The notes under the pieces: generated by a model | Told to the model about the DNA's origin: nothing | The model's input: the letters and a program-made list of their open reading frames with translations, nothing else | The model's database searches: none | Shown here: one piece after another, positions 29,865 through 47,104 of the stretch | Numbering within the stretch: the stretch's first letter is position 1 | Layout: every line of letters begins with the position of its first letter | Source of the DNA: Rickettsiales bacterium | Lineage (GTDB): Bacteria > Pseudomonadota > Alphaproteobacteria > Rs-D84 | Reading direction: 5' to 3' | Assembly (NCBI GenBank): GCA_031266915.1 | Contig: JAISAB010000024.1 | Span: 23,571 to 87,570, forward strand | DNA: 64,000 nucleotides | Made by a program: the position numbers and the translations under genes

Positions 29865-30464
29865 TTAAGGTTTCCAGGGCTTCACATCATCGTCAACTAA
29901 AATAATATTCGAATAATAACAGTCCGACGTGTACGTATAATTTCCGATAGTATCTTCGTCGGTCGTACCGGCCGGTATGTAACAGCTTGTAATCGCCGTC
30001 GCGCCAGCCGCGCTGCTTTTTGATTCCGGGCAGGCGGTGCAGCCGGTTGAACCGTTGGTGCTGGTGCCGTAATAGTCGGCCGCGCATCTGTACGACGTGC
30101 CAGTCGTGTTGCACGTGTTGCAATCACAATTGCGATCGACTTTCTTTTCATATCCGGTCGCGTGCGCGACCCAGTTCGTGTCGCTGATGCAGTTTTCGCA
30201 CCCATTGCAGTTGATTTCGCAGTCTTGGTATATGAAAGTACAGCTGCCGGTATTTTGCGTATTCCCAGACTTTATGTTGTAACCGTTGGCGCAGGTTTGG
30301 CATGAATAAAAATTGTTGCTTTCGTAACAAACGACTTTAGAGCATCCCGTGATTGTTGGGGTGGGGGCCGAGCAAGTTGCCGATTGGCATATCGCCCCAA
30401 AAACTCTGCAAGGTATCACCGACAAAACAAGAAAAACAACTCCGTTTCGTAAAATTTTTATCAT
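29865..30464 (-). CDS. secreted cysteine-rich protein, paralog A
   Basis: The likely start MIKILRNGVVFLVLSVIPCRVFGA is a signal peptide. Shared motifs are SYRCAADYYGTSTNGSTGCTACP and the C-terminal SCYIPAGTTDEDTIGNYTYTSDCYY. Confidence 0.75.
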   Translation of the reverse strand: MIKILRNGVVFLVLSVIPCRVFGAICQSATCSAPTPTITGCSKVVCYESNNFYSCQTCANGYNIKSGNTQNTGSCTFIYQDCEINCNGCENCISDTNWVAHATGYEKKVDRNCDCNTCNTTGTSYRCAADYYGTSTNGSTGCTACPESKSSAAGATAITSCYIPAGTTDEDTIGNYTYTSDCYYSNIILVDDDVKPWKP

Positions 30465-30493
30465 GCCGATTTCTCCATTTGTTTTATGTGAAC

Positions 30494-30710
30494 AAAAAAC
30501 CACCGGAAAAACAGGTGGTTGGAGGTTAGCGACTATTATCAGAAATAGTGGTGGTATTCGATATATTCCCACACCCTCCAACCATTAAAATGTTGGAGCG
30601 AACACAGCAAAGTATCGCCTTGTGCCAGCGTCTGATAACGGGTCGCTAAACCCCATCGTCGGAATTCCCGACGACACTGGCATTCTATCCGATTAAGATT
30701 TGCGACGCAA
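30494..30710 (-). promoter_or_regulatory. structured leader RNA, copy A (promoter + P1/P2 + antiterminator/terminator)
   Basis: The promoter is TTGCGT-17-TAGAAT. P1 is UCGUCGG-GAAUU-CCGACGA. The four segments are CUCCAAC / GGUUGGAGG / CCUCCAACCACC / GGUGGUU followed by U6. GGAG and the ATG come next. Confidence 0.7.
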
Positions 30711-35199: not shown

Positions 35200-35226
35200 G
35201 CTTAACCAATGTAAAGGAGGATTGGA

Positions 35227-35799
35227 ATGAGATTCAGATTAATTTCAGTTTTTGCCGTCGCTGTGGCGCTTTGCGGCATGGACAGGGTATATGGTGCAGG
35301 ATTTCAATGTCCATCTAGCGGCGAATGCACTTGTCCGAACGGAGGGACTGGTTGTGTATGCGATGAAAATAATTATATAGATACATCCAAGTGCTGCAGA
35401 AAAGACTGTTCAAATAAATGCGCCGACGGCATCTGGAAACCCTCAAGCGTCAGTGGACATGAGGCTTATCACAATGCGCAGTTGCAAAAATCATCGTCGT
35501 GCACATGCGCAGACGGTTTGACAAGCTGCACCGCGACTTGCGGTTGCATTAACGTGGGGGTTTCAGACTACCGCTGCGCCGTCGGATACTATGGCACCAG
35601 TGTTGACGGAACATCAGGATGTACGCAATGCCCGCTGGTGGTCGGAGTGTATTCCGATTCGTTTCTAACATATGAAGCAAGGGGGACGACCGTTGATGCG
35701 GGAAACGGCAAATCGCAATCTGATTGCTATCTGGCAAACGGTGGAAAATATTACGACGCGACTGGGGATTTGACGCTAACGGGTAATTGTACTTACTAG
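35227..35799 (+). CDS. secreted cysteine-rich protein, paralog B
   Basis: The signal peptide is MRFRLISVFAVAVALCGMDRVYG. Shared motifs are DYRCAVGYYGTSVDGTSGCTQCP and the C-terminal SDCYLANGGKYYDATGDLTLTGNCTY. Confidence 0.8.
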   Translation: MRFRLISVFAVAVALCGMDRVYGAGFQCPSSGECTCPNGGTGCVCDENNYIDTSKCCRKDCSNKCADGIWKPSSVSGHEAYHNAQLQKSSSCTCADGLTSCTATCGCINVGVSDYRCAVGYYGTSVDGTSGCTQCPLVVGVYSDSFLTYEARGTTVDAGNGKSQSDCYLANGGKYYDATGDLTLTGNCTY

Positions 35800-43508: not shown

Positions 43509-43630
43509 AATATAAAACAACTAGTGCATAGTGATTAGTTTATAGTGCATAGTTACTAGTTTACTAATCACTATTAACTATGCACTAATCACTAATGTTT
43601 TGGATTTTTGATGCTATCCTTGATATAAGA

Positions 43631-43880
43631 AAACGGGGGGTTGATGAGGCCCCCCGCATGCACGCTATCCACTTCCATACTCCCAATATGGAAGCAAAAA
43701 ACCGCTTTTATAACAAAGCGGCTGGAGGCTAGTAACAATAATGTGAATTGCACGACTTATTCAATATATTCGTCGTCCTCCAGCCATATAGCTGGAATCC
43801 ACATATACAGGTTACTGGGCCTCATCGCGGAAACGCTCCACGACAAGGGTTATTGTACATTGTAAATACGATTTTTGCAA
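43631..43880 (-). ncRNA. orphan copy G1 of the structured RNA (no downstream ORF)
   Basis: The promoter is TTGCAA-17-TACAAT. P1 is UCGUGGA-GCGUU-UCCGCGA. The segments are UUCCAGC / GGCUGGAGG / CCUCCAGCCGC / GCGG followed by U6. A GGA-rich tail comes next, then a second terminator GGGGGGCCUCAUCAACCCCCC-GUUUU. Confidence 0.65.
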
Positions 43881-43892
43881 GCGATGATTTAA

Positions 43893-44144
43893 GAAACAGG
43901 GGGTTGATTAGGCCCCCCGCATGCGCACTATCCACTTCCGTATCTCCCATACGAAAGCGAAAAAAACCGCCTTTATAACAAAGCGGCTGGAGGCTAGTAA
44001 CAATTCAAGAATTGCACGACTTATTCAATATATTCGCCGTCCTCCAGCCATTTATGGCTGGAATCTTGATACAGGTTACTGGGCCTCATCGCGGAAACGC
44101 TCCGCGACAGTGGCTATTGTACATTGTAAATACGATTTTTGCAA
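43893..44144 (-). ncRNA. orphan copy G2 of the structured RNA (tandem duplicate of G1)
   Basis: It has the same architecture as G1, 264 bp upstream. The promoter is identical (TTGCAA-17-TACAAT). The P1 stem is UCGCGGA/UCCGCGA. Confidence 0.65.
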
Positions 44145-44156
44145 GTTTTTTCGACT

Positions 44157-44375
44157 GGTCCAACCGACAGAAATGTATTTTTTTGAACAAAAACAACTTT
44201 GTTGTTTTTGTCATCCCGGCGCAGGCCGGGATAGGGTCTATTAACCGTGAGCGAAGCGAACCAAAAACCATGGCAATGCTTCGCATTGCGGTTGATGGTC
44301 CCTATTCCTGCCTGCGCAGGAATGACAAACCTCTTTCAGAGGTTTGTTTAAAAAGATACATTCGATGTCAGTTGG
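44157..44375. mobile_element. MITE-like deletion derivative of the GIY-YIG element
   Basis: It has the same outer ends (CCAACCGACAGAAATGTAT... / ...ATACATTCGATGTCAGTTGG), the same inner hairpin modules (GTCATCCCGGCGCAGGCCGGGATAGGG / CCCTATTCCTGCCTGCGCAGGAATGAC) and the same AAACCTCTTTCAGAGGTTTG hairpin as 45700-46238. It lacks the ORF. Confidence 0.65.
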
Positions 44376-44506
44376 GCAAAAAATTGTTTTGCAAACTTTT
44401 GTTTTAATTAGGGTACATTGCTGACACTTGAACCTTTCGATTTAACAGGGACCGCCGTCCAAATAACTGTTGATTAGGAATGGCTTTTTCTTGTAGCATT
44501 TTATTT

Positions 44507-46283: not shown

Positions 46284-46829
46284 TTACTTTAAAACCGCGC
46301 CGGACCAGTAGCAATTCTCGGTGTATTCAAAGGTGCCTGTTTCATCCTGTTCTATTACCCCGGCCGGTATATAGCAGTTTAACATTGAGCTGCCGCCCCA
46401 AGACGTCGCATTGACATTGTTGGTCTCCATTCTGCAATTTTTGCAATTTGCGAATCCAAGAGTATTGCTGAAAAAGCCCGCCGGACAGCTATCGAAATCA
46501 AGACAAAAGCCCCACATGCTCATAGATACCGATAAATCCAAACCATCTACATAATTTTCTGCAACACCGATAGCTTCCTCGCCCGCATTGATGGTTGAAC
46601 ATATACTGCTTTCAAGAGCCGTAGTATATCTCGAACAAACATCGCCATACGCCATGGAATTAATCGTATTAAAATCATAACCCATACCATTATACTGGTA
46701 CTCGTAATAAGATATCAGGTTTGACATTATATGGCATAAAATCTCGTCGTCATCGGATATTGCGGAAACGGGACTCGTCAGCGATACGCTTACAAGGGCG
46801 GCGGCGGCCCAAGTGATGAATTTTTTCAT
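46284..46829 (-). CDS. secreted cysteine-rich protein, paralog D
   Basis: The likely start MKKFITWAAAALVSVSLTSPVSA is a signal peptide. It has CPAGFFSNTLGFANCKNC and the C-terminal NCYIPAGVIEQDETGTFEYTENCYW. Confidence 0.75.
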   Translation of the reverse strand: MKKFITWAAAALVSVSLTSPVSAISDDDEILCHIMSNLISYYEYQYNGMGYDFNTINSMAYGDVCSRYTTALESSICSTINAGEEAIGVAENYVDGLDLSVSMSMWGFCLDFDSCPAGFFSNTLGFANCKNCRMETNNVNATSWGGSSMLNCYIPAGVIEQDETGTFEYTENCYWSGAVLK

Positions 46830-46853
46830 TCCAACCTCCTTTTTTTGTTTGGG

Positions 46854-47104
46854 AACGAAAGAACCGCCCAAAAAAGGCGGTCAGGAGGTTACAAACAATC
46901 CACATGAAATTGTGCCGTGTCTTCGATATATAACATCAGCCCTCCTGACCAACAGCCAGGAGCTTATTCTTCGCCGCAATAACAAAAAACACGCGAAACG
47001 CGCGCTGTTTAAAATTGCGACGCATGTGGAAGGAGTTTGTACACCCCGTCGCGGGAACACCCCGACGACAACATCAGTGTAATTCAAAGCGCCCCGCGTT
47101 TCAA
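46854..47104 (-). promoter_or_regulatory. structured leader RNA, copy D
   Basis: The promoter is TTGAAA-17-TACACT. P1 is GUCGUCGGG-GUGUU-CCCGCGAC, with one bulged U. The segments are CUCCUGG / GGUCAGGAGG / CCUCCUGACCGCC / GGCGGU followed by UCUUUCGUU. AGGAGG and the ATG come next. Confidence 0.7.

Follow-up and report, generated by a model that had tools for sequence, protein, structure and literature searches.

In the spacer between the pyruvate kinase gene pyk and a D-Ala-D-Ala carboxypeptidase gene (dac), this Rickettsiales genome (1.09 Mb in 26 contigs, estimated 95% complete) carries two adjacent copies of an RNA leader with no gene behind them. We asked what such gene-less copies are, and whether they could act on the gene-linked members of their family. 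The analysis centers on a window of 64,000 nucleotides, the whole stretch of DNA that was examined, and extends to the rest of the genome and its relatives.

Anatomy of the tandem units

Tandem Repeats Finder placed a head-to-tail repeat at 43621-44145 (period 264, 2.0 copies, 87% matches), and the two units, G1 and G2, are 88% identical by BLAST, in agreement with the minus-strand duplication of about 264 bp given in the preliminary description. The units were also correctly described as convergent with pyk, whose product matches PF00224 and PF02887. The G2/G1 junction is bridged at 43861-43928 by a 68-nt exact unitig from X1, a run of termite-gut metagenome DNA that may be the source data of the genome assembly itself. 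X1 is the one run among three public termite-gut DNA runs in which the locus is present, and a search for the region among RNA-seq runs gave no match.

Read along the minus strand, each unit has the same order of parts: a promoter, the P0 hairpin (GUCGCGGAGCGUUUCCGCGAU), a folded leader of ~150 nt closed by the terminator T1, a tail of ~65 nt (GCUUCCAUAUUGGGAGUAUGGAAGUGGAUAG...GCAUGC) and a second terminator-like element, T2 (Table 1). The described identity of the promoters was reproduced: the same 29-nt sequence stands in G1, G2 and the related copy on contig C20, and the promoter is kept in five of the six copies of this type. The consensus scan as a whole found two promoter-like sites, no more than the 2.4 expected from shuffled sequence. 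The leader architecture ending in a terminator was recovered as well, with T1 called in both units (nine pairs and a U-run). For the second terminator, the proposed hairpin is there, GGGGGGCCUMAUCAACCCCC(C) followed by GUUUUCUU or UGUUUCUU, and folds in both units, but the terminator scan did not call it because its 9-nt loop exceeds the permitted 3-8 nt; we therefore describe T2 as a predicted, imperfect terminator-like hairpin.

G1 and G2 share the same eight-helix fold, and none of 200 shuffled sequences folded as well as either. Rfam searches of the whole window at gathering thresholds returned tRNAs only. At E <= 10, nothing relevant was found on G1 or G2, and microRNA-like matches fell on neighboring palindromes.

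Table 1. Positions of the tandem units, their parts and related leader copies. Positions refer to the window unless a contig is named.
Feature	Position	Strand	Basis or remark
G1 promoter, TTGCAA-17-TACAAT	44116..44144	-	consensus scan, 9/12 matches
G1 leader RNA: P0, long-range clamps P1 and P2, P3, P4, T1	43958..44108	-	MFE fold, z = -6.2; RNAalifold consensus; scan
G1 T1 stem, then U-run	43988-43965	-	terminator scan, 9 pairs
G1 tail: H5, single-stranded GGAUAGUGCGCAUGC, predicted T2	43891..43957	-	pair counts; fold
G1 H5 hairpin, GGGAG in loop	about 43959-43933	-	six-copy pair count
G1 predicted T2: G-run, C-run, then UGUUUCUU	43918-43913 (G-run), 43903-43899 (C-run)	-	folds at -13.9 kcal/mol
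G2 promoter, TTGCAA-17-TACAAT	43852..43880	-	consensus scan
G2 leader RNA: P0, P1, P2, P3, P4, T1	43694..43844	-	MFE fold, z = -5.6; scan; pair counts
G2 T1 stem, then U-run	43723-43700	-	terminator scan, 9 pairs
G2 tail: H5, micro-ORF ATG (non-conserved), predicted T2	43627..43695	-	fold; pair counts
G2 H5 hairpin	43695-43672	-	fold; pair counts
Micro-ORF ATG in G2	43678-43676	-	not conserved
G2 predicted T2: paired arms, then U-run	43655-43650 with 43640-43635; U-run 43633-43627	-	folds at -16.1 kcal/mol
P4 loop GAAUAUAUUGAAUAAG, 16 nt (example)	43758-43773	-	
pyk-dac spacer, 971 bp: G2, G1 and two other repeat elements	43509..44479	.	junction compared with relatives
Other leader in window	30451-30675	-	
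Other leader in window	46786-47069	-	
Gene-linked leader	34997 to 35205-35253	+	before Cys-rich secreted ORF 35227-35799
G-type copy outside window	C20:22717-22964		
G-type copy outside window	C10:53924-53668		
G-type copy outside window	C26:18452-18702		
G-type copy outside window	C26:43367-43615		
Type-b copy outside window (example, genome G000)	C20:22397-22647		

A leader family with gene-linked and gene-less members

BLAST and an nhmmer profile together located about 56 copies of the leader in the genome. About 36 of these stand directly before signal-peptide ORFs and about six precede Xre-like HTH ORFs. Six gene-less units, G1, G2 and four more, share the G1/G2 tail and are referred to here as G-type. 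A second gene-less class, type-b, numbers about 11 copies, which carry a promoter of their own, differ in the P4 loop and end in a long tail hairpin whose loop shows the anti-Shine-Dalgarno-like sequence UCUCUCC(UCC). Upstream of gyrA/parC, a type-b copy and a G-type unit stand back to back.

The gene-linked leaders have P0, P1, P2, P3, P4, the near-invariant P4 loop, a three-segment switch and T1 in common with the G-type units, but contain an extra hairpin, P2a, that the G-type units lack. Unlike the gene-linked leaders, G-type units carry their own promoter sequence, and where the former continue into an A-rich Shine-Dalgarno region and an ORF, the latter have a 9-13-bp hairpin (H5) with GGGAG in its loop, followed by the second, predicted terminator. 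GGGAG looks like a Shine-Dalgarno sequence, and in position and sequence H5 appears to resemble the hairpin around the Shine-Dalgarno sequence and start codon of gene-linked units. The P4 loop, GAAUAUAUUGAAUAAG, is almost invariant across genera, on a stem that covaries freely. It contains an 8-nt palindrome, AAUAUAUU, which is kept in the variant GAUAUAUC.

We trained a covariance model (R1) on the six G-type RNAs, G2 among them, and with it detected the leader in 51 of the 61 family genomes searched, up to 36 times in a single genome. Scores at the G-type level (220-252 bits; 244 bits for G2) were confined to this genome; elsewhere the top score was 97 bits. R1 thus placed no G-type unit elsewhere among the 61 family genomes, and none was present in the assembled part of either of two incomplete close relatives (69% and 61% complete). 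Exact-pattern scans of genome contigs and metagenome contigs for the G-type tail gave 0 matches. The relatives that have names are uncultured gut Alphaproteobacteria, namely the 'Rickettsiales bacterium' MAGs Cc175_bin55 and Cc175_bin31 and Candidatus Enterousia.

Gene-less leader units in series also occur in other genera, in genomes G024 (four before an HTH gene, contig C1, about 70.5-72.4 kb) and G075 (three, contig C1). These arrays have a period of ~245, a promoter per unit and a small HTH gene after the last unit only, and their tails differ from the G-type tail.

The units do not look like genes for peptides

The preliminary description had named a conserved micro-ORF in the tail as an alternative functional product. 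For such a small peptide (MEVDSVHAGGLINP...), one can point to the Shine-Dalgarno-like GGGAG that precedes an ATG in G2 and in the C20 and C10 copies. Against it, the gap between the two is only 1-2 nt, the other three copies have ACG or ACA at the start codon, and the change from AUG to ACG is matched by a change from CAU to CGU across the H5 stem (A-U to G-C, columns 161:174), so that the loss of the start codon is compensated within the stem. Of the two copies on contig C26, one (C26a) has a frameshift and a stop after four codons, and the other (C26b) a stop after six. The micro-ORF is therefore not conserved, and we give a peptide product next to no chance.

Open frames on the opposite strand had been explained as existing only because of the duplication. 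This explanation fails, as solitary copies also have 52-72 stop-free codons, in a frame that shifts from copy to copy. We rejected the opposite-strand ORFs as genes on account of this frame switching and the lack of Pfam matches. None of the seven local ORFs matched Pfam, and no reading frame is conserved across the copies on either strand. Because neither the micro-ORF nor the opposite-strand frames are conserved and none has a Pfam match, we accept the earlier reading of G1 and G2 as gene-less, self-contained non-coding units, with a structure that is kept across six copies.

Structural conservation and two alternative folds

Between the six G-type RNAs, 13-24% of the full unit has diverged. 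Their RNAalifold consensus comprises 70 pairs; 98.1% of the pair cells contain a standard pair, and in 12 pairs both partners have changed. Column shuffling did not reach these pairing values in any of 500 trials. All eight helices are kept across the six copies, the tail hairpin included. Most double changes fall in the variable helices P1 and P2. H5, which is specific to the G-type subfamily, has 13 pairs that are 100% paired in the six copies, two of them changed on both sides and five by wobble. The pattern argues for selection on all of these predicted helices; the covariation reflects few independent events, since the six paralogues also exchange segments. So small a share of broken pairs (1.9% of cells) speaks for a fold that matters, whether the units were recruited to a function or spread selfishly.

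The minimum free energy fold (fold A) clamps a 5' sensor to a 3' receptor through P1 and P2, pairs segment 1 with segment 2 as P3, allows T1 to form and displays the near-invariant loop on P4. The sensor consists of the loop of a GAGG...CCU hairpin and the next 5-7 nt, and the receptor of the GUUnnnnnCCUC stretch and the loop of a CAAUU...AUUG hairpin. Fold B instead joins segment 2 (GGCUGGAGG) to segment 3 (CCUCCAGCC), the end of which doubles as the foot of T1. This pairing closes a three-way junction around P4 and an additional hairpin, P5 (CAAUU...AUUG); the 3' strand of P2 forms the loop of P5.

We counted the pairs of fold B in 67 family members that had been aligned beforehand to fold A. 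Of the cells, 95.5% are paired, and 13 of the 19 pairs show changes in both partners; no shuffle out of 500 matched this paired percentage. One pair of P5, for example, is A-U in 42 sequences and U-A in 19. The two predicted folds are mutually exclusive and each is supported by covariation, so the leader is, on this comparative evidence, a bistable element. For G1 and G2 the calculated energies favor fold A over fold B by 13-15 kcal/mol, so that an RNA of ~150 nt ending at T1 is the expected default product; read-through to T2 (~218 nt) would need something that tips the balance toward fold B. These predicted sizes take the place of the ~120 and ~230 nt expected previously.

A lineage-specific insertion

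The genes pyk and dac are adjacent throughout the family. Their spacer measures 971 nt here versus 21 nt in genome G001, of the same genus, 77 nt in the MAG Cc175_bin55, whose pyruvate kinase is 88% identical, and about 50-170 nt in three other genera (estimated from BLAST coordinates). It holds G2, G1, an AT-rich palindromic repeat and a MITE-like element, that is, at least four repeat units at one junction. Since the pyk-dac site is empty in the two closest relatives, the 971-bp block is a lineage-specific insertion; the suggested check of whether relatives keep the copies thus comes out negative at this site. At the gyrA/parC locus of G001, the type-b unit is kept (86% identity) and unrelated sequence occupies the G-type position.

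G1 and G2 are 97% identical in the two halves of P1 and 78-79% identical elsewhere. Outside the P1 halves G2 is closer to the C20 copy, with 94% identity in the tail. This mosaic identity indicates that G-type copies exchange segments. Copy-end alignment and the comparison with G001 revealed no recognizable inverted ends or target duplications. Judged from these comparisons, the G-type units appear to be a young, lineage-specific and proliferating subfamily, and a young spread fits a recently recruited function and selfish spread alike.

The units might be selfish or neutral repeats. On this view, a cassette of promoter, leader and terminator lost its gene, was later copied to other places in the genome and serves the cell in no way, and the common structure is due only to recent ancestry and gene conversion. 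The empty sites in both closest relatives, the restriction of G-type units to this genome among those searched, the exchange between copies and the two other repeat elements in the same spacer are all as expected of such cassettes, as is the failure of the searches described below to find a target. Mere copying accounts poorly for 13-24% divergence with only 1.9% of pair cells broken, for wobble and double changes in P1, P2 and even the subfamily-specific tail hairpin, and for a promoter kept in five of six copies; nor were the inverted ends or target duplications of a mobile element recognized in the two comparisons above. We regard selfish or neutral spread as rather unlikely, but as an explanation to be kept in mind.

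The neighborhoods of the units bear on a role in cis. At two of five G-type loci, the unit lies 60-100 nt upstream of a gene in the same direction, one of the GyrA/ParC family and one for PFK, so that read-through past T2 could drive gyrA/parC or pfk; at pyk, the transcript could act as antisense to the 3' end of the gene. The other three units face the 3' end of a convergent gene, four terminators stand in series before pyk here, and these genes are expressed in the nearest relatives although the unit is missing there. Regulation of neighbors is in our estimation very unlikely.

Tests of action in trans

If G1 and G2 acted on other leaders by base pairing, their sensors or receptors should fit foreign partners. 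Across 46 units, sensor-receptor duplexes have energies of -23.5 +/- 2.7 kcal/mol with the unit's own receptor and -11.5 +/- 3.4 kcal/mol with foreign ones, and the own receptor ranks first in 40 units. G1 and G2 bind even the best of the foreign partners 3-6 kcal/mol less strongly than their own, and they share no clamp address with any gene-linked leader among the 46 units. The clamp sequences are thus private to each unit, and the clamps look built for pairing within one molecule. The own-partner advantage, ~12 kcal/mol on average, points either to compensated drift or to selection that keeps ~50 switches in one cell from cross-talking. For the same reason, the decoy role proposed for the units is not supported in the form of base pairing.

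Other pairing partners were sought in the whole genome. An antisense search with the tail yielded nothing beyond chance 10-15-mers, and the complement of the P4 loop occurs only on the opposite strand of the leaders themselves. Duplexes between G-type and type-b tails average -33.9 kcal/mol versus -29.0 +/- 4.9 kcal/mol for shuffled sequence; they are not significantly more stable, and the difference is due to runs of G and C.

A precedent for pairing in trans is the immI region of phages P1 and P7, which encodes the antisense RNA C4 and its sites a1/b1 and a2/b2 (RF01695, RF03163; listed in PMC2864571). There, two sites in an upstream element match two parts exposed on a structured RNA farther down the same transcript; the cognate sensor-receptor pairing would be the functional equivalent here. 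By analogy, the two variable loops of the core RNA would pair with other leaders or with mRNAs, and the sensor/receptor layout does recall the a1/b1 and a'/b' sites of C4. Sub-threshold Rfam matches point the same way, with the c4-a1b1 model on P0 and the next hairpin (16.5-20.6 bits against a threshold of 46.7) and sRNA-Xcc1 on the core. RF01695 itself has no match at E <= 10, or at E <= 5 in a further search. C4 has a downstream target copy (a2/b2) and the leader lacks one, as receptors paired equally well with the 90 nt downstream of cognate and non-cognate units (-9.25 and -9.32 kcal/mol). Together with the private addresses, the weaker foreign partners of G1 and G2 and a tail that has no extended complementarity anywhere in the genome, this leaves a C4-type antisense role only a slim chance. 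The outputs differ too: P1 C4 acts through a translational block with Rho-dependent polarity, and the leader would act through an intrinsic terminator.

The units could also bind a protein. The preliminary description had counted about seven GGA triplets per unit, several of them in loops, which would suit a sponge of the CsrB/RsmZ type that titrates CsrA. The count holds for G2 (seven) and nearly so for G1 (six), with 4-7 per unit over the G-type copies; the placement in loops largely does not, because in the predicted fold most triplets are buried in stems and those exposed are in the H5 loop and in one single-stranded GGAUAG. The genome, estimated as 95% complete, has no CsrA gene (PF02599), a search in which control genomes scored. 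The hint of a CsrA sponge fails for want of that gene, and we consider such a sponge extremely improbable. Hfq was likewise not found in the genome, which has a single NusG and no NusG paralogue. A search of the genome for ANTAR gave no match, but the control was likewise silent.

What the G-type units do retain is the consensus form of P0 and of the P4 loop. They may possibly be decoys for a protein or ligand that reads these two invariant elements, of which the P4 loop could be a site of loop-loop dimerization or of protein binding. It is also possible that the read-through tail is functional.

Similarity to known small RNAs

The closest structural match in Rfam is sRNA-Xcc1 (RF02221), an 88-nt stand-alone sRNA of Xanthomonas campestris that was confirmed by Northern blot (PMC2996969). 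In the best G-type copy its model aligns exactly to fold B (27.1 bits, E = 0.008 over 291 nt), short of the gathering score of 53 bits, and G1 and G2 have no match at E <= 10. Both RNAs have a three-way junction with a 9-bp closing helix, here segments 2 and 3, around two hairpins, a U-rich 3' end, and a gene-less unit with its own promoter and terminator (here predicted). They differ in that the junction of the G-type units is one of two folds, is clamped by a 60-nt 5' sensor domain and is followed by a 65-nt tail, and in the host, here an alphaproteobacterial gut symbiont. By eye, no integron attC consensus or core sites were seen in the tail or at the 3' end of the unit.

In layout, the nearest parallels are riboswitch-containing sRNAs such as EutX of Enterococcus faecalis and Rli55 of Listeria, and the trans-acting SAM riboswitches SreA and SreB. 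The long form of EutX contains a copy of the structure of regulated leaders and titrates the reader of these leaders. EutX and Rli55 have a cis-type sensor and terminator before a non-coding tail, with short and long forms that depend on the signal. The G-type units have this layout, a sensor with an intrinsic terminator and then a structured non-coding tail with its own predicted terminator. They depart from it in that the whole leader, not the tail alone, duplicates the regulated leaders, and in being present in six copies per genome.

A proposed mechanism

Taking the structural and comparative results together, we think it probable that G1 and G2 are stand-alone non-coding units derived from the leader, for which our best functional guess is a switch-gated small RNA or a decoy for the leader's reader. 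We infer that the units are transcribed, that the signal flipping the roughly 40 gene-linked leaders would also flip G1 and G2, and that the product would either be a small RNA gated by the switch or compete for the reader of the signal.

A sigma-70-type promoter would start the RNA at the P0 hairpin. In the clamped fold, the sensor would pair with the receptor of the same molecule and segment 1 would hold segment 2, so that T1 forms and releases an RNA of ~150 nt. In the open fold, segments 2 and 3 would close the three-way junction and the base of T1 would be lost; transcription would then proceed through H5, with its Shine-Dalgarno-like loop, and stop at T2 to give an RNA of ~218 nt.

A broader reading would see in the gene-less units, six G-type and eleven type-b, a separate layer of regulation, in a genome without Hfq or CsrA. 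Gated by the same switch as roughly 40 genes for exported proteins, they would buffer or time the regulon. With their leader part they would compete for whatever reads the invariant P0 and P4 loop, and the read-through tails would present a Shine-Dalgarno mimic (GGGAG, G-type) or an anti-Shine-Dalgarno mimic (CUCUCC, type-b) that acts in trans on translation initiation. We offer this as a speculation that is distinctly unlikely to be right as a whole.

In a genome of this size, one RNA switch family that has no entry in Rfam precedes about 40 genes for exported proteins. The gene-less copies are the simplest objects for studying the switch, because they are short, free of coding constraints and have two predicted product sizes. 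Were they to act in trans, a cis-regulatory RNA family would have begotten its own class of competitors or small RNAs, as with EutX for the ANTAR leaders, and the poorly understood sRNA-Xcc1 fold would be tied to a concrete two-state mechanism. Were they only selfish, they would show complete promoter-to-terminator cassettes spreading within reduced genomes.

Neighboring repeat elements

Two other elements share the spacer with the tandem units. Directly upstream of G1, at 44157-44375, lies a hairpin-rich element with raised depth in X1 and spurious microRNA-like Rfam matches. Between pyk and G2, at 43522-43601, is the AT-rich palindromic repeat, built of TAGTGCATAGT... units with a period of 21. 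Its words have a depth of 300-600 in X1 against ~12 for the adjoining pyk, and pieces of it also occur in the two other termite-gut runs. Probably the repeat is a mobile hairpin element present in many copies.
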